Below are positions 4,819 to 52,861 of a stretch of DNA of 64,000 nucleotides, one piece after another. The stretch is from Escherichia coli (lineage in GTDB: Bacteria; Pseudomonadota; Gammaproteobacteria; Enterobacterales; Enterobacteriaceae): assembly GCF_003790525.1 (NCBI RefSeq), contig NZ_CP033635.1; one strand, written 5' to 3'. Numbering within the stretch: the stretch's first letter is position 1; each line of letters opens with the position of its first letter. The translations under genes and the position numbers were made by a program. A model generated the notes under the pieces. It was not told where the DNA came from, did no database searches, and saw only the letters and a program-made list of their open reading frames with translations.

Positions 4819-5805
4819 TTATTGCACCTCATCCACGGCTTTCAGCAGATCAGCTCCCTGCGGCACATCTTTAACAAACATGTCGCGAACCTGATTCCCC
4901 AGTGCGTCGCTAAAGGCTTTGCGGTCGAGATCGGTGATGACTTCCACGCCCGCTTCTTTCATGCCGTCGATGATTTTTTGCTGATCTTCGGCAACCAGTT
5001 TGCGCTGGTAGTTACCCGCTTCCTGCGCAGATGAAATTAGCGCTTGCTGGAACTCCGGGGTTAAGCCGTCAAACTTCGCTTTGTTGATCACCACCAGAAG
5101 TGGCGAATAGGCGTGGTGCGTCAGAGAAAGGTACTTCTGTACTTCATAAAATTTTGCTGACCAGACGACGTTGATCGGGTGTTCCTGAGCGTCGATAGTG
5201 CGCGTTTCCAGCCCGGTATAGACTTCGGCAAACGGCATCGGGATCGGGTTAGCGCCAAAGACTTTGAATGCTGCGATATTCATCGGACTATTGTTGGTGC
5301 GGATTTTCAGCCCTTTCAGGTCGGCGGGGGTTTTAACCGGTGCGCGCGAGTTGGTGACATCGCGCCAGCCGTTTTCCCAGTAGGCCAGTACTTTCAGTCC
5401 TTTACCTTCAAGTGAGGCTTTCAGATCATCACCGACTTTGCCGTCGAGCGTTTTATGCGCGTGAGCGGTATCGCGGAACAGGAAAGGGACATCAAGCAAG
5501 TTCATCACTGGTGATAACCCGGCAAAGTTATTCGAGCCGGACATTTCCATATCGATGGTGCCGCCACGTACGCCGCTGATCATCGCCTGCGCGTTACCGA
5601 GAGTGCTGTCCGGGAACAGTTTTAATTTCAGCTCGCCTTTGGTTCTCTCCTGCAATAAATCATTGAATTTTTTCGCCGCAATATGTTGCGAGTCGGTTTG
5701 TGAGGTTTCATAACCGAAACGTAAAGATTGCGCCGCCATTGAAGATGTACTAAATGCAGCCAGGCCAGCAATGAATAATGCGTAGGTTACAGAGCGTAAT
5801 TTCAT
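4819..5805 (-). CDS. yiaO: TRAP transporter periplasmic solute-binding protein
   Basis: 328 aa with signal peptide; DctP-type binding protein. Confidence 0.9.
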   Translation of the reverse strand: MKLRSVTYALFIAGLAAFSTSSMAAQSLRFGYETSQTDSQHIAAKKFNDLLQERTKGELKLKLFPDSTLGNAQAMISGVRGGTIDMEMSGSNNFAGLSPVMNLLDVPFLFRDTAHAHKTLDGKVGDDLKASLEGKGLKVLAYWENGWRDVTNSRAPVKTPADLKGLKIRTNNSPMNIAAFKVFGANPIPMPFAEVYTGLETRTIDAQEHPINVVWSAKFYEVQKYLSLTHHAYSPLLVVINKAKFDGLTPEFQQALISSAQEAGNYQRKLVAEDQQKIIDGMKEAGVEVITDLDRKAFSDALGNQVRDMFVKDVPQGADLLKAVDEVQ

Positions 5806-10837: not shown

Positions 10838-10945
10838 TGCCGGATGCGGCTTAAACGCCTTATCCGGCCTACAAATTCTTCCAAATTCAATATATTGCAG
10901 AAATGATGTAGGCCTGATAAGCGTAGCGCATCAGGCAATTTTTAA
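10838..10945. repeat. REP/BIME palindromic elements between convergent ysaA and avtA
   Basis: tgccggatgcggc…gccttatccggcctaca and inverted tgtaggcctgataagcg…gcatcaggca REP-type sequences. Confidence 0.75.
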
Positions 10946-29536: not shown

Positions 29537-29770
29537 TCGCTAAATAATAGAGCAACCTTTAATAATCTTCTGCTGAATAAAGATTGTCTCATATATTAAT
29601 TTTATGAGATTTTTTTAGGATTATATCAAGGAGAAGAAACGAACTTATTAAGCTAGAATAGCTGCGGGTGCTTGAGACTGTTTGTCTCAGGTATTCACCG
29701 AAAGGCAGACAGAGAAAAGCCCCACCTGACTATAAATCAAAGTGTGTACTGACCCCAGAAAGTTGGACAG

Positions 29771-31505: not shown

Positions 31506-31536
31506 AAAAAAATCCCCGCCATTTGGCAGGGATCTT
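31506..31536 (-). terminator. rho-independent terminator of cspA
   Basis: minus-strand hairpin atccctgcc-aaat-ggcggggat followed by T-tract. Confidence 0.7.
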
Positions 31537-31560
31537 AGATTCTGTGCTTTTAAGCAGAGA

Positions 31561-31773
31561 TTACAGGCTGGTTACGTTACCAGCTGCCGGGCCTTTAGCG
31601 CCGCTTTCGATGGTGAAGGACACTTTCTGACCTTCGTCCAGAGATTTGTAACCATCGTTCTGGATAGCAGAGAAGTGTACGAACACGTCTTTAGAGCCAT
31701 CGTCAGGAGTGATGAAGCCGAAGCCTTTGTCAGCGTTGAACCATTTTACGATACCAGTCATTTTACCGGACAT
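31561..31773 (-). CDS. cspA: major cold-shock protein CspA
   Basis: 70 aa [70 protein letters not shown]. Confidence 0.98.
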
Positions 31774-31932
31774 AGTGTATTACCTTTAATAATTAAGTGT
31801 GCCTTTCGGCGATATGGCGTGCTTTACAGATTTTGAAGCGTTAAAGGAATGTGCACTACGAGGGGTATCAACGATAACTCTTGAAGGGACTTGCCTTACT
31901 ACACTGCTTTAATGGTCTGTACGTCAAACCGT
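31774..31932 (-). promoter_or_regulatory. cspA long 5' untranslated leader (cold-responsive RNA thermosensor region)
   Basis: about 160 nt between the expected promoter and the cspA start codon; boundaries approximate. Confidence 0.55.
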
Positions 31933-32053
31933 TGATGTGCATTAAGCCACGCATTGGCGGGTGATGCAACAATTATTTTTCATATTTATGATTAATCGGT
32001 TGGAAAACGGTCCTGTCATCAGGACCGTAAACAGCAATAAAGTGGATAAAAGT

Positions 32054-41131: not shown

Positions 41132-41346
41132 CTGCTTTTTGTAACGCTAAAGTCTCTTTTCAAACTTGCATTTTTGTAAATTTGTGCTTCATGCACACTC
41201 TTTCCCCACACTTTTTCCCTTTGCTGTGGTCTACTTATTCGCGCGTGTAGATTTTACTTATCTGACTACCTCCGCACTTTTCCCCTGCCGGGCCTGAAAA
41301 GCCGCTAAGCAGGGTGTTATCACCTGTTTGTCCAGGGTTTGTTTGC

Positions 41347-43038
41347 ATGAGATACATCAAATCGATTACACAGCAGAAGCTGAGCTTTTTGCTTGCAATC
41401 TATATTGGCCTTTTTATGAATGGCGCGGTTTTTTACCGCCGCTTCGGCAGCTATGCGCACGATTTTACCGTCTGGAAAGGTATTTCTGCTGTTGTTGAAC
41501 TGGCCGCCACCGTACTGGTGACCTTCTTTTTACTGCGTCTTCTTTCGCTGTTTGGCCGCCGCAGCTGGCGTATTCTGGCATCGCTGGTGGTGCTCTTTTC
41601 CGCAGGTGCCAGCTATTACATGACCTTCCTTAATGTAGTCATTGGTTATGGCATCATCGCATCCGTCATGACCACCGATATCGACCTGTCAAAAGAAGTT
41701 GTTGGTCTGAACTTTATTCTCTGGTTAATCGCCGTAAGCGCGTTGCCTCTTATCCTTATCTGGAATAACCGCTGTCGTTACACCTTGCTCCGACAACTGC
41801 GAACCCCAGGGCAGCGTATTCGCAGCCTGGCGGTCGTCGTACTGGCAGGTATTATGGTTTGGGCACCGATTCGTTTGCTGGATATCCAGCAGAAGAAAGT
41901 GGAGAGGGCGACAGGTGTTGATTTGCCGAGTTATGGCGGCGTCGTCGCGAACTCTTATCTGCCATCAAACTGGCTTTCGGCATTAGGTCTTTATGCCTGG
42001 GCGCGGGTCGATGAATCTTCCGATAACAATTCTCTCCTTAACCCTGCGAAGAAGTTTACGTACCAGGCTCCACAAAACGTTGATGATACATATGTCGTTT
42101 TCATTATTGGTGAAACCACGCGCTGGGATCATATGGGCATTTTCGGCTATGAACGCAATACCACACCGAAACTGGCTCAGGAGAAAAATCTGGCGGCGTT
42201 CCGTGGTTACTCCTGTGATACTGCAACCAAACTCTCACTGCGTTGCATGTTTGTACGTCAGGGTGGAGCAGAAGATAATCCGCAGCGCACATTAAAAGAA
42301 CAGAATATTTTCGCGGTGCTGAAGCAGTTAGGATTCACTTCTGATCTCTACGCTATGCAAAGCGAAATGTGGTTCTACAGCAATACGATGGCGGACAACA
42401 TTGCTTATCGTGAGCAGATTGGTGCGGAGCCACGTAACCGTGGCAAACCGGTAGATGATATGTTGCTGGTAGACGAAATGCAGCAGTCGCTGGGGCGCAA
42501 CCCGGATGGTAAGCATCTGATCATTCTGCATACCAAAGGCTCACACTTTAACTACACCCAGCGTTACCCGCGCAGCTTTGCGCAGTGGAAGCCGGAATGT
42601 ATTGGTGTTGATAGCGGCTGTACCAAAGCGCAGATGATCAACTCATACGACAACTCGGTGACCTATGTGGATCACTTTATTTCCAGCGTGATTGATCAGG
42701 TTCGCGATAAGAAAGCGATTGTGTTCTATGCAGCTGACCACGGTGAGTCAATTAATGAACGCGAGCACCTGCACGGCACGCCGCGTGAACTGGCACCGCC
42801 GGAACAGTTCCGTGTGCCGATGATGGTCTGGATGTCGGATAAATATCTGGAAAATCCGGTCAATGCGCAGGCATTTGCGCAGCTGAAAAAAGAAGCCGAC
42901 ATGAAAGTGCCACGCCGTCATGTAGAGCTGTACGACACCATCATGGGGTGTCTTGGCTATACTTCACCGGATGGTGGAATTAACGAAAACAACAACTGGT
43001 GCCACATCCCGCAGGCAAAAGAGGCAGCGGCTAACTAA
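41347..43038 (+). CDS. eptB: Kdo2-lipid A phosphoethanolamine transferase
   Basis: ATG at 41347 gives 563 aa starting [19 protein letters not shown]; membrane domain plus sulfatase-like domain. Confidence 0.92.
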
Positions 43039-43088
43039 GAAGCCTGCTGACTTTCTCGCCGATCAAAAGGCATTTTGCTATTAAGGGA

Positions 43089-43117
43089 TTGACGAGGGCG
43101 TATCTGCGCAGTAAGAT
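43089..43117 (+). promoter_or_regulatory. proK promoter (sigma70 -35 TTGACG, 17 bp spacer, -10 TAAGAT, GC-rich discriminator)
   Basis: ttgacg at 43089..43094 and taagat at 43112..43117, followed by gcgccccgc before the tRNA 5' end. Confidence 0.7.
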
Positions 43118-43129
43118 GCGCCCCGCATT

Positions 43130-43206
<77 letters not shown>

Positions 43207-43214
43207 AATTCGAA

Positions 43215-43241
43215 AAGCCTGCTCAACGAGCAGGCTTTTTT
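43215..43241 (+). terminator. rho-independent terminator of proK
   Basis: aagcctgct-caacg-agcaggctt followed by ttttttg. Confidence 0.85.
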
Positions 43242-43296
43242 GCATCTGTAGCTCATGAGGAAGAGAACCCCCGGGGGCGGGGAGGTTCGATTCGAC

Positions 43297-43385
43297 GTAG
43301 GCCTGATAAGACGCGCCAGCGTCGCATCAGGCAAATGTACCGGCCCATTGTCGGATGCGGCGCGACCGCCTTATCCGATCTACAC
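43297..43385. repeat. REP/BIME palindromic element pair
   Basis: gtaggcctgataagacgcg…gcatcaggca and …tcggatgcggcgcgaccgccttatccgatctaca. Confidence 0.7.
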
Positions 43386-43899
43386 ACCACACATTTCCCT
43401 GCCAAATTTGCGCCCCATATCTCACTATCCATTAACGGATTTGTGACAGAAACCATTGTCTTTTTTTATATTTGCTTAAATCTTTTTTTGCGTTACTTAT
43501 GGCTGGCGCTGGCATTTTCCGCTGTGCGTTTTAGCGTTCATGGTATTAATCGCTCAGATATCCACCTTTACCTCAGATTTTTTTCATTAAATGCATAAAA
43601 CTTAATCACCAAATGTTGCTAAATATTAAGCTGATTGTTCTGGTTGTGTTGGCGTAGCACAAATTTCTCTGCTGCAAATAGCTGTTTGAAGTTTTTTTAA
43701 TCTTTGTTTGTGGATTCTCACCGTTGGTGTAAATCCCGGTTGGCTGTATTGACGTTTTCACATTCTGTTGACAGATTGTAGGTCACGAGGGGCATTTTAT
43801 GGAGGATCCGCACTGTTACACTGATGTTAATTAGTACGGCATCCCCACCTCATAACGTTGACCCGACCGGGCAAAAAACAAAAAAGGTCAGGCAGCGAC

Positions 43900-43940
43900 A
43901 ACCCACTGCAAAGGGTTAAAACAACAAACATCACAATTGG
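43900..43940 (+). promoter_or_regulatory. C/A-rich segment of the dppA 5' leader (GcvB sRNA target-type sequence)
   Basis: aaaacaacaaacatcacaatt immediately upstream of the dppA RBS. Confidence 0.55.
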
Positions 43941-43949
43941 AGCAGAATA

Positions 43950-45557
43950 ATGCGTATTTCCTTGAAAAAGTCAGGGATGCTGAAGCTTGGTCTCAGCCTG
44001 GTGGCTATGACCGTCGCAGCAAGTGTTCAGGCTAAAACTCTGGTTTATTGCTCAGAAGGATCTCCGGAAGGGTTTAACCCGCAGCTGTTTACCTCCGGTA
44101 CCACCTATGACGCCTCTTCCGTACCGCTTTATAACCGCCTGGTTGAATTTAAAATCGGCACCACCGAAGTGATCCCGGGCCTCGCTGAAAAGTGGGAAGT
44201 CAGCGAAGACGGTAAAACCTATACCTTCCATCTGCGTAAAGGTGTGAAGTGGCACGACAATAAAGAATTCAAACCGACGCGCGAACTGAACGCCGATGAC
44301 GTGGTGTTCTCGTTCGATCGTCAGAAAAACGCGCAAAACCCGTACCATAAAGTTTCTGGCGGCAGCTACGAATACTTTGAAGGCATGGGCTTGCCGGAGC
44401 TGATCAGCGAAGTGAAAAAGGTGGACGATAACACCGTTCAGTTTGTGCTGACTCGCCCGGAAGCGCCGTTCCTCGCTGACCTGGCAATGGACTTCGCCTC
44501 TATTCTGTCAAAAGAATATGCTGACGCGATGATGAAAGCCGGTACACCGGAAAAACTGGATCTCAACCCAATCGGTACCGGCCCGTTCCAGTTACAGCAG
44601 TACCAGAAAGATTCCCGTATTCGCTATAAAGCGTTTGATGGCTACTGGGGCACCAAACCGAAGATCGATACGCTGGTCTTCTCTATTACTCCTGACGCTT
44701 CCGTGCGTTACGCGAAATTGCAGAAGAACGAATGCCAGGTGATGCCGTACCCGAACCCGGCAGATATCGCCCGCATGAAGCAGGATAAATCCATCAACCT
44801 GATGGAAATGCCGGGGCTGAATGTCGGTTATCTCTCGTATAACGTGCAGAAAAAACCACTGGATGACGTGAAAGTTCGCCAGGCTCTGACCTACGCGGTG
44901 AACAAAGACGCCATCATCAAAGCAGTTTATCAGGGCGCGGGCGTATCAGCGAAAAACCTGATCCCGCCAACCATGTGGGGCTATAACGACGACGTTCAGG
45001 ACTACACTTACGATCCTGAAAAAGCGAAAGCCTTGCTGAAAGAAGCGGGTCTGGAAAAAGGTTTCTCCATCGACTTGTGGGCAATGCCGGTACAACGTCC
45101 GTATAACCCGAACGCTCGCCGCATGGCGGAGATGATTCAGGCAGACTGGGCGAAAGTCGGCGTGCAGGCCAAAATCGTCACCTACGAATGGGGTGAGTAC
45201 CTCAAGCGTGCGAAAGATGGCGAGCATCAGACGGTAATGATGGGCTGGACTGGCGATAACGGGGATCCGGATAACTTCTTCGCCACCCTGTTCAGCTGCG
45301 CCGCCTCTGAACAAGGCTCCAACTACTCAAAATGGTGCTACAAACCGTTTGAAGATCTGATTCAACCGGCGCGTGCTACCGACGACCACAATAAACGTGT
45401 TGAACTGTACAAACAAGCACAGGTCGTGATGCACGATCAGGCTCCGGCACTGATCATCGCTCACTCCACCGTGTTTGAACCGGTACGCAAAGAAGTTAAA
45501 GGCTATGTGGTTGATCCATTAGGCAAACATCACTTCGAAAATGTCTCTATCGAATAA
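43950..45557 (+). CDS. dppA: dipeptide ABC transporter periplasmic binding protein
   Basis: 535 aa with signal peptide. Confidence 0.96.
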   Translation: MRISLKKSGMLKLGLSLVAMTVAASVQAKTLVYCSEGSPEGFNPQLFTSGTTYDASSVPLYNRLVEFKIGTTEVIPGLAEKWEVSEDGKTYTFHLRKGVKWHDNKEFKPTRELNADDVVFSFDRQKNAQNPYHKVSGGSYEYFEGMGLPELISEVKKVDDNTVQFVLTRPEAPFLADLAMDFASILSKEYADAMMKAGTPEKLDLNPIGTGPFQLQQYQKDSRIRYKAFDGYWGTKPKIDTLVFSITPDASVRYAKLQKNECQVMPYPNPADIARMKQDKSINLMEMPGLNVGYLSYNVQKKPLDDVKVRQALTYAVNKDAIIKAVYQGAGVSAKNLIPPTMWGYNDDVQDYTYDPEKAKALLKEAGLEKGFSIDLWAMPVQRPYNPNARRMAEMIQADWAKVGVQAKIVTYEWGEYLKRAKDGEHQTVMMGWTGDNGDPDNFFATLFSCAASEQGSNYSKWCYKPFEDLIQPARATDDHNKRVELYKQAQVVMHDQAPALIIAHSTVFEPVRKEVKGYVVDPLGKHHFENVSIE

Positions 45558-50935: not shown

Positions 50936-51410
50936 AAAGTCCTGTCCAGAAAGAAGTCGGCCTCGCAAAAATGAATAAACCCAGTTTCTCTTGCGCAACA
51001 GGTGGAGAAGTCGAATACGCAGTATGTAAAAAATGAGGCAACAGATTCACTGGGGAGGTCGCGAGGAGGCGCAATTCTACAAAATTGCGCATTTCACTAC
51101 CAGTCTGGAGTCAGCCCGGATATGAACTGCAACTATTGCAAATAAAGAAATTAAGCTGGAATGCATCACGCAATGAGGAAGATTGCCGGGTGCTGACGGT
51201 AAAAAGCAATCGTAGAATCAGCGGCAAGCCGGAAAGGTTCCGGTGAGGCGCAATGTTGCGGGGGCTTAATCCCTGGTGGCATTGGTTGCTGGAGAGAGAA
51301 AACCCCCGCATATTGCAGGTATGCACCTGACAACATCACGGGGGCTAATCTTGAACCTAGACCACTCAAGAATAGCCGCGAAACGTTGTCATTACAACAC
51401 AGGCGGCTAT

Positions 51411-51518
51411 ATGACGCTCGCAGAACTGGGCATGGCCTTCTGGCATGATTTAGCGGCTCCGGTCATTGCTGGCATTCTTGCCAGCATGATCGTGAACTGG
51501 CTGAATAAGCGGAAGTAA
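51411..51518 (+). CDS. ldrD: Ldr-family type I toxin peptide (35 aa), copy 1
   Basis: MTLAELGMAFWHDLAAPVIAGILASMIVNWLNKRK. Confidence 0.85.
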   Translation: MTLAELGMAFWHDLAAPVIAGILASMIVNWLNKRK

Positions 51519-51893
51519 CGTGTCAGACGGGCGTCAGGCTGCCGTAATGGCAATTTGCGCCCGGACCAGGCCGCAGGGATAAAACTCTGCGGCCTTTTTC
51601 GTAAGAAAAATGCAACGGTTGCAAGCGGATAATATTCTGCGGAATGCGCAGCACAGAGTGAAGACGTGACGGATTCCGGAACAGAAAAACAGTCGTAGAA
51701 TCAGCGGCAAGCCGGAAAGGTTCCGGTGAGGCGCAATGTTGCGGGGGCTTTATCCCTGGTGGCATTGGTTGCTGGAGAGAGAAAACCCCCGCACGTTGCA
51801 GGTATGCACCTGACAACACCACGGGGGCTAATCTTGACTCTAGACCACTCAAGAATAGCCGCGAAACGTTGTCATTACAACACAGGCGGCTAT

Positions 51894-52001
51894 ATGACGC
51901 TCGCAGAGCTGGGCATGGCCTTCTGGCATGATTTAGCGGCTCCGGTCATTGCTGGCATTCTTGCCAGCATGATCGTGAACTGGCTGAACAAGCGGAAGTA
52001 A
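51894..52001 (+). CDS. Ldr-family type I toxin peptide (35 aa), copy 2
   Basis: identical peptide to copy 1. Confidence 0.85.
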   Translation: MTLAELGMAFWHDLAAPVIAGILASMIVNWLNKRK

Positions 52002-52377
52002 CGTGTCAGACGGGCGTCAGGCTGCCGTAATGGCAATTTGCGCCCGGACCAGGCCGCAGGGATAAAACTCTGCGGCCTTTTTCGTAAGAAAAATGCAACG
52101 GTTGCAAGCGGATAATATTCTGCGGAATGCGCAGCACAGAGTGAAGAAGTGATGGATTTCGACGAACAAAAATGGCCGTAGAATCAGCGGCAAGCCGGAA
52201 GGGTTCCGGTGAGGCGCAATGTTGCGGGGGGCTTTATCCCTGGTGGCATTGGTTGCTGGAGAGAGAAAACCCCCGCACGTTGCAGGTATGCACCTGACAA
52301 CACCACGGGGGCTAATCTTGACTCTAGACCACTCAAGAATAGCCGCGAAACGTTGTCATTACAACACAGGCGGCTAT

Positions 52378-52485
52378 ATGACGCTCGCAGAGCTGGGCAT
52401 GGCCTTCTGGCATGATTTAGCGGCTCCGGTCATTGCTGGCATTCTTGCCAGTCTGATCGTGAACTGGCTGAACAAGCGGAAGTAA
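52378..52485 (+). CDS. Ldr-family type I toxin peptide (35 aa), copy 3 (M26L)
   Basis: MTLAELGMAFWHDLAAPVIAGILASLIVNWLNKRK. Confidence 0.85.
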   Translation: MTLAELGMAFWHDLAAPVIAGILASLIVNWLNKRK

Positions 52486-52861
52486 CGTGTCAGACGGGCG
52501 TCAGGCTGCCGTAATGGCAATTTGCGCCCGGATCAGGCCGCAGGGATAAAACTCTGCGGCCTTTTTCGTAAGAAAAATGCAACGGTTGCAAGCGGATAAT
52601 ATTCTGCGGAATGCGCAGCACAGAGTGAAGACGTGACGGATTCCGGAACAGAAAAACAGTCGTAGAATCAGTGGCAAGCCGGAAGGGTTCCGGTGAGGCG
52701 CAATGTTGCGGGGGGCTTAATCCCTGGTGGCATTGGTTGCTGGAGAGAGAAAACCCCCGCACGTTGCAGGTATGCACCTGACAACATCACGGGGGCTAAT
52801 CTTGAACCTTAACAACTCAAGAATAGCCGCGAAACGTTGTCATTACAACAGAGGCGGCTAT

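Follow-up and report, generated by a model that had tools for sequence, protein, structure and literature searches.

The repeats of 178 bp that are linked to tyrT correspond to RtT RNA, encoded by rttR in K-12 (Bosl & Kersten 1991, as summarized in PMC3318445 and PMC4986893). According to the literature, RtT RNA arises as a by-product when tyrT is processed, and an effect on the stringent response has been proposed for it; the papers that mention it restate the tyrT origin and leave its function unsettled (PMC3318445, PMC4986893, PMC7542023, 10.1101/2024.07.17.603846). Both the RtT family (Rfam RF00391) and RtT units behind the tRNA-Pro gene proK are already known from public annotation; for RtT at proK, we found no open-access description in the literature. 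Two other kinds of described system bear on the same location. tRNA genes are common integration sites, and partial tRNA copies left as att scars in K-12 include ptwF, pawZ and pauD. In addition, REP elements and the BIMEs that they form are targeted by insertion sequences, namely: IS621 and IS1397.

Here, we analysed a 64,000-nt stretch of E. coli DNA (hereafter the window; all positions without a locus label are numbered within it), and in particular the spacer between proK and dppA. An original prediction had pointed to a tRNA-like fragment in this spacer and had proposed for it a relic att site, a tRNA pseudogene or chance similarity. We consider it highly probable that positions 43240-43295 are instead the truncated last unit of an RtT tandem array behind proK.

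Organization of the proK-dppA spacer

The features of the locus are as follows.

41314-43038: eptB, upstream of proK
43130-43206, plus strand: proK, tRNA-Pro(CGG) (ARAGORN; Rfam tRNA, 60.7 bits; tRNA-Pro in the RefSeq record of strain SMS-3-5)
43188-43206, plus strand: last 19 nt of proK, the start of the RtT tandem unit as delimited by the K-12 direct repeat
43213-43241, plus strand: intrinsic terminator of proK (12-bp stem, 3-nt loop, T-run), belonging to the repeated unit
43240-43295, plus strand: RtT 5′ remnant, approximately positions 1-55 of the RF00391 model
43256-43272, plus strand: decayed antisense copy of the proK T-arm, TGAGGAAGAGAACCCCC (family consensus GAGGATGAGAACCTCC)
43281-43293, plus strand: copy, in sense orientation, of the 5′ half of the T-arm of proK, GGAGGTTCGA followed by TTC (direct repeat D1 with 43179-43191, 92% identical)
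43297-43332, plus strand: first REP of the pair, GTAGGCCTGATAAGACGCGCCAGCGTCGCATCAGGC (inverted repeat I2), adjoining the RtT cut point
43350-43383, minus strand: second REP, in opposite orientation (naRNA4 alignment), forming a BIME with the first
43950-45557: dppA, downstream of the REP pair

The window does not differ from strain SMS-3-5 at any of the 961 nt compared (43000-43960), and the RefSeq record of that strain has nothing annotated between tRNA-Pro and dppA. The arms of the proK terminator (43213-43224 and 43228-43239; inverted repeat I1) are 100% complementary and are followed by the T-run, and the hairpin was also recovered by folding. A simple terminator scan missed it on the plus strand; its one call, a weak site on the minus strand within the fragment (43283-43268), does not exceed what shuffled sequences give. 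The 53-nt string quoted in the original prediction is present at 43245-43297, although the span given for it, 43243-43297, starts 2 nt too early; the string includes GTAGCTCA at 43248-43255 and GGTTCGATTC at 43284-43293. ARAGORN, Rfam and the inverted repeats all place it as described, i.e. directly after the proK terminator and directly before the REP pair. The latter (43297-43383) was recognized as a BIME through a match to Rfam naRNA4 (RF02564) at 43300-43380, with 70.5 bits vs. a gathering score of 59.5.

Identity of the stretch behind the proK terminator

Positions 43207-43300 were compared by BLAST with 5,426 complete E. coli genomes. The stretch is present in 5,409 of them, and some of the matches are annotated as "RtT sRNA". 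In strain AR_0015, the RefSeq RtT sRNA lies immediately behind the proK terminator and matches RF00391 with 99.4 bits (E 4e-21, model positions 1-130). RefSeq also has a full RtT at this position in the K-12 strains JM83 and MG1655, among others. The window and the AR_0015 RtT align base for base from the terminator to 43295; beyond that position, the window continues with REP sequence and AR_0015 with the RtT core. With the full AR_0015 RtT as query, at least 80% was covered in 2,680 of the 5,426 genomes, so that about half carry a full RtT at proK, while genomes that resemble the window match query positions 1-56 only, at 92.9-98.2% identity. The BLAST matches to RtT 5′ halves reach E values of 1e-13 to 2e-17 (against 28 Gb).

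We also built a covariance model, R1, from the RtT 5′ halves of 16 non-Escherichia genomes representing 16 genera, all linked to proK or proM (alignment A3). R1 matches the window at 43238-43295 over its full length (positions 1-56), with 60.7 bits and an E value of 2.5e-14, and the runner-up in the 64 kb scores 8.8 bits. RF00391 finds no RtT in the window that reaches its gathering score of 45 bits, and none at E≤10 either in 43100-43500 or in 43207-43295, where the end was cut to allow for truncated matches. The Rfam searches of the fragment returned only terminator look-alikes. Since RF00391 is blind to the fragment, its identity rests on the comparative alignment and on the purpose-built model; the R1 match and the collinear alignment together indicate that the fragment is the 5′ 56 nt of an RtT unit.

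The position of the fragment is that of an RtT unit: it begins 34 nt past the 3′ end of proK, at the terminator T-run and on the same strand, and the same layout of tRNA, trailer and T-run is found in 62 RtT copies beside 8 kinds of tRNA. Its content is that of an RtT 5′ half, with a homologous antisense T-arm segment and a homologous GAACC...GGTTCGA hairpin. It has neither the core hairpins nor the 3′ tail in which the end of the tRNA is copied and the outer helix closed; the homology stops at 43295, where REP sequence follows. It is because of this truncation that the fragment falls below the family threshold, and it is classed here as a truncated RtT relic and not as an intact member of the family.

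The RtT identity accounts for most of the resemblance to tRNA. The original prediction saw no foldable cloverleaf, and this is borne out: ARAGORN finds proK only in the 64 kb, and the Rfam tRNA model is silent here at E≤10. The minimum free energy of the fragment is at the level of its shuffles (z = -0.02). The T-loop-like motif is beyond chance, in that GGAGGTTCGATTC (43281-43293) agrees with the proK T-arm GGAGGTTCGAATC (43179-43191) at 12 of 13 positions, a match reached in 1 of 5000 shuffles of the fragment. By alignment, GGAGGTTCGA is genuinely copied from the 5′ half of the T-arm of proK and is a standard part of RtT units. This sense copy is kept in all 16 genera of A3, and in full units it is predicted to pair with GAACCTCC to form the first hairpin. 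Read directly as a tRNA T-arm, i.e. as a 5-bp stem around a TTCGAAT loop, the sequence GGAGG TTCGATT CGACG gives 2 of 5 pairs; in the predicted fold of the remnant, GGAGGTTC pairs upstream with GAACCCCC. The D-arm-like motif GTAGCTCA is a different matter, and its likeness to a tRNA is fortuitous: it lies in a variable linker and reads GCAGCTCA in K-12, and its aligned columns vary freely across the 16 genera. The neighbouring GG.AGAG is part of the antisense T-arm segment (43256-43272). When compared with the proK T-arm in reverse complement, this segment matches at 12 of 17 positions, and 13 of 5000 shuffles reach that level.

Tandem RtT units behind proK vary in number among strains

The RtT unit at proK is 168 bp long and starts inside the T-loop of proK, 19 nt before the tRNA 3′ end; the classical tyrT repeat likewise begins with the last 19 nt of its tRNA. 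From 5′ to 3′, the tRNA end is followed by the trailer and terminator, the antisense T-arm, the 5′ half of the sense T-arm (GGAGGTTCGA), a core of about 60 nt consisting of GC-rich hairpins, and finally the 3′ half of the T-arm, the 3′ strand of the acceptor and CCA.

The alleles differ in the number of such units, with 0.64 in the window, 1.64 in K-12 and 2.64 in O111:H8. In the window, 108 nt (43188-43295) lie directly before the REP pair, and the core and the copy of the tRNA 3′ end are missing. In K-12 (JM83, MG1655), proK and its terminator are followed by a full RtT and then by a second proK 3′ end and terminator, the terminator being copied along with the unit; this second unit continues with an identical 56-nt RtT 5′ half and then runs into the REP pair. 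A direct-repeat finder accordingly returns a perfect 108-nt repeat in K-12 with a spacing of 168 nt (locus L003, 1449-1556 and 1617-1724), and O111:H8 has three copies of the 108-nt repeat, one unit more than K-12. Tandem Repeats Finder gave no array for either the window or K-12, probably since arrays of fewer than 2 units escape it.

The RtT/REP junction of the window is the same as that of the last unit in K-12, and this truncated junction is found in 4,817 of the 5,426 E. coli genomes. By rough subtraction, about 51% of the genomes carry the truncated unit alone, about 38% at least one full unit plus the truncated one, and about 11% are without the junction. AR_0015 belongs to the last group: its one full unit is followed by a 24-nt tail and by one degenerate REP, which occupies the position of the second REP, the first being absent.

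Full proK-linked units also occur in Salmonella diarizonae (2 units), Klebsiella pneumoniae, Kluyvera, Enterobacter, Phytobacter and Trabulsiella, as well as in E. whittamii (2 units) and Escherichia sp. E1V33. The Salmonella records have "RtT RNA" annotated beside tRNA-Pro. In E. whittamii the last unit is cut at a different point, and in E1V33 the same REP stands right behind a complete unit. Because full units are spread across other genera, they are probably ancestral and the window allele derived; we infer this direction of change from the genera that carry full units.

Two further observations concern RtT arrays in general. The terminal partial copy of the proK 3′ end reads TGGCACCGACCA rather than TATCACCGACCA in AR_0015, E1V33, Phytobacter and an Enterobacteriaceae MAG (L001, 3145-3175; L036, 443-470; L016; L029), an old, shared difference from the functional tRNA. 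At the tyrT-tyrV locus, the number of annotated RtT units ranges from 1 to 5 in three strains (L004, 1335-2424; L005, 1038-1950; L006, 1214-1594), and one strain has two units between both tRNA-Tyr genes.

RtT units mimic the adjacent tRNA

A search for the core pattern, together with the E. coli loci, gave the 62 RtT copies mentioned above, the former from 53 loci (L010-L062). They adjoin tRNA-Pro(CGG), Pro(UGG), Tyr, Lys(UUU), Lys(CUU), Ser(UGA), Ser(GGA) and Gly. The units linked to tyrT and to proK share a common core, and their flanks follow the adjacent tRNA. For 7 of the 8 kinds, the 3′ tail agrees with the last 20 nt of the cognate tRNA at 16-19 positions, vs. 10-13 for the other tRNAs; the single Lys(CUU) copy scores 8/20 in the ungapped comparison, yet the cognate CCACCCGGCTCACCA can be seen at the end of its tail. 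In the well-sampled kinds, the five bases that precede TTCGA largely match the cognate T-stem (means out of 5: proK, 4.6; Pro(UGG), 5.0; Tyr, 3.9; Lys(UUU), 3.8), and the single Ser and Gly copies score 1-3 of 5. The segment with the consensus GAGGATGAGAACCTCC is an antisense copy of the cognate T-arm, since intact Pro(CGG)-linked segments match it at a mean of 14.3 of 17 positions and Tyr-linked segments at 14.0, compared with 10.7 for non-cognate T-arms. In the predicted fold of a full unit, this antisense segment pairs with both halves of the T-arm, which the core splits at A58.

Shorter forms resembling RtT were seen behind tRNA-Ser, tRNA-Gly and tRNA-Lys(CUU) in three bins, of which two are assigned to Saccharibacteria and one is from rumen (L018, about 5221-5243, minus strand; L035, 317-339, plus strand; L052, 620-642, minus strand). 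In these, the split T-arm copy is followed by the cognate tRNA 3′ end, the cassettes are much shorter than the enterobacterial core (17 nt in L035, 22 nt in L052 and about 45 nt in L018), and the Rfam RtT model is blind to them. Hybrids of another kind occur in Xenorhabdus japonica, where a near-complete 5′ part of a Lys tRNA is fused to an RtT core (L026, 283-352, minus strand; Rfam tRNA, 29.9 bits), and in Raoultella terrigena, where a Tyr-like 5′ part with a changed anticodon precedes an RtT core (L058, 2796-2940, plus strand; Rfam RtT, 76.9 bits). Both are joined at the T-loop and could be recombinants between a tRNA gene and the RtT unit downstream of it.

In every case, the copied T-arm is interrupted at A58, and the interrupting cassette begins with TCGAGCGAAGCGAGA. 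One reading of this is that RtT units, the relic included, are footprints of a small non-autonomous element that inserts at A58 of the T-loop in tRNA-derived DNA and spreads between tRNA loci. It would fit the constant split point and the cassette hairpin TCGAGCGAAGCGAGA, which contains GCGAAGC, a very stable DNA mini-hairpin. It would also fit the T-arm and acceptor bases on the flanks, which match the upstream tRNA for Pro(CGG), Pro(UGG), Tyr, Lys, Ser and Gly, as well as the minimal hairpin cassettes of 17-22 nt in the Saccharibacteria and rumen bins and the antisense T-arm ahead of each well-sampled unit. Tandem duplication and gene conversion with the tRNA explain most of these observations, and for that reason we hold the insertion of such an element to be improbable.

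Alternative explanations of the fragment

If the fragment were a relic att site, one of the options of the original prediction, it would be a partial tRNA copy left by a phage or island that integrated at, or was excised from, proK. The full-RtT alleles do have a direct repeat of the proK 3′ end, e.g. ATCCTCTGGCACCGACCAAATTCG in AR_0015, and the terminal copy differs from proK by AT>GG in 4 genomes from at least 3 genera, as would be the case for a displaced old 3′ end. An att scar, however, would hold the tRNA 3′ end, whereas the fragment holds the 5′ half of the T-arm, and in other strains only one or more 168-bp RtT units, with no integrase or cargo, stand between the repeats. The flanks are core genes (eptB and dppABCDF), again with no integrase. 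When a phage collection was searched for a partial proK attP, the matches were all either whole phage tRNA-Pro genes or Salmonella records with the proK-RtT locus, and an even sample of about 40 E. coli genomes has no island at proK. The variation sampled consists of RtT copy number and of IS621 or IS1397 in the REP pair. Among the collinearity breaks, H105, H108 and H109 were opened and found to correspond to RtT copy number (L008), IS621 (L007) or IS1397 (L009), while H103, H104, H106 and H107 were judged by their table rows only. With the wrong half of the T-arm, core genes on both sides, no phage attP and no island in the sample, an integration relic is highly unlikely.

A degenerate pseudogene, i.e. 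a second tRNA copy that lacks the anticodon arm, is also highly unlikely. It would draw on the T-arm 5′ half, which matches proK at 12 of 13 positions, on the D-arm-like GTAGCTCA..GG.AGAG, and on the existence in X. japonica and R. terrigena of hybrids between a tRNA 5′ part and an RtT core. On the other hand, neither ARAGORN nor the Rfam tRNA model at E≤10 gives a match, the D-arm-like bases are unconserved, and the whole stretch is collinear with RtT units, being the first 56 nt of one. The consensus GAGGATGAGAACCTCC fits an antisense T-arm better than any sense part of a tRNA (14.3/17 vs. 10.0/17), and a derivation of the RtT 5′ segment from an internally deleted tRNA 5′ half was discarded on the same ground. 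Among the Pro-linked copies examined, none formed a graded intermediate on the way to a full tRNA-Pro 5′ half. Chance resemblance within a REP-rich spacer describes the D-arm-like 8-mer, which varies across strains and genera, and could be read into a folding energy at shuffle level (z = -0.02). For the fragment as a whole its probability is negligible, given an E value of 2.5e-14 with R1, E values of 1e-13 to 2e-17 in the BLAST matches to RtT 5′ halves, and a T-arm match that only 1 of 5000 shuffles attains. What survives of the initial interpretation is a T-loop motif derived from a tRNA; the named explanations, namely pseudogene, att relic and pure chance, find no support.

The test that accompanied that interpretation would have dismissed the fragment if covariance models gave no hit and no island polymorphism were found at proK. 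Public models are indeed negative and the sampled genomes have no island, yet such a test is blind to the RtT identity. Because the covariance screens of Rfam and PGAP miss truncated RtT units, it would wrongly have read that nothing is there.

Origin and decay of the remnant

We return to the truncated RtT unit as the preferred reading. The simplest origin of the window allele would be the loss of one unit from a K-12-like allele of 1.64 units, by homologous recombination (unequal crossing-over) between the two perfect 108-nt repeats. A single exchange between these repeats would yield exactly the arrangement of the window. The RtT/REP junction itself could have arisen through insertion of a REP or through a deletion. 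We also considered a simple deletion at a TCGA microhomology in an E1V33-like allele, for which the predicted junction is off by one A.

Compared with the 16-genus alignment, the remnant has three substitutions, namely: T>A at 43264, T>C at 43272 and C>T at 43291. The column of 43272 is invariant in A3, that of 43264 nearly invariant, and that of 43291 invariant or nearly so; changes at such positions fit relaxed constraint. Since the remnant stands behind the terminator, has no 3′ strand for the outer helix and is changed at invariant sites, it is most likely non-functional DNA, although transcripts that read through the terminator could include it. It might conversely retain a function, as part of the proK 3′ trailer/terminator region or, together with the REP pair, as a structured element on read-through towards dppA. 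The junction allele is very common (4,817 of 5,426 genomes) and the GAACCCCC-GGGGAGGTTC hairpin is still predicted in the remnant fold. Against this, the remnant lies downstream of a strong terminator, about 11% of genomes do without the junction, the last unit of E. whittamii ends at another point, and invariant positions are substituted. We therefore consider a retained function very unlikely.

Insertion sequences in the REP pair and other features of the window

The REP pair is interrupted by insertion sequences in several strains. IS621 (IS110 family) lies inside the pair in ECOR29 (L007, 4829-5809) and IS1397 in EC6868 (L009, 4620-5968), and FDAARGOS_497 has an IS3-family transposase at the pair (L002, 3164-4512).

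Elsewhere in the window, four tandem Rfam rdlD matches of 86-88 bits, spaced by about 484 nt, lie at 51297-52813 on the minus strand, downstream of the dpp operon. They indicate a four-copy ldr/rdl toxin-antitoxin array; in K-12, a single ldrD/rdlD pair is present there. Rfam also identifies the cspA thermoregulator at 31506-31933 (minus strand, 500.9 bits), the sok antitoxin at 29666-29762 (plus strand, 68.8 bits) and the ES036 sRNA at 10873-10915 (plus strand, 45.3 bits).

Taken together, the RtT reading explains, as a decayed known repeat, a 56-nt stretch that is left unannotated in about half of E. coli genomes, and it disposes of a misleading trail at proK, that of a tRNA pseudogene or att scar. 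The proK-dppA spacer illustrates compactly how three sources of intergenic variation meet: unequal crossing-over in a tRNA-linked array, gain and loss of REPs, and insertion of REP-targeting IS elements. The mimicry by RtT units of whichever tRNA lies upstream may merit a dedicated study.

Comparison with known systems

Like att scars, the fragment is short, derived from a tRNA and placed next to an intact tRNA gene, and the full-unit alleles share with them a direct repeat of the tRNA 3′ end. It departs from them in that proK shows no integrase, cargo or occupied/empty polymorphism in about 40 genomes, in that the fragment contains the 5′ half of the T-arm, and in that the repeat is part of a 168-bp unit kept across genera. 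The sequence directly 3′ of the fragment (43297-43383) is a canonical inverted REP pair, i.e. a BIME, whereas the fragment itself is not REP sequence and the REP marks only the RtT cut point.

The closest system remains RtT, with the repeats linked to tyrT. As there, the fragment lies right behind a tRNA gene in the same orientation, and its 56 nt consist of the GGTTCGA hairpin, preceded by the antisense T-arm segment and by the linker that follows the T-run. It also belongs to a tandem array of variable length, as is the case at tyrT, where three strains have 1-5 copies. It differs from RtT in amounting to 0.64 of a unit, with a REP standing where the core hairpins and the copied tRNA 3′ end would be, and from RtT at tyrT in carrying GGAGG/CCTC of tRNA-Pro where the latter carries GAAGG/CCTTC of tRNA-Tyr.
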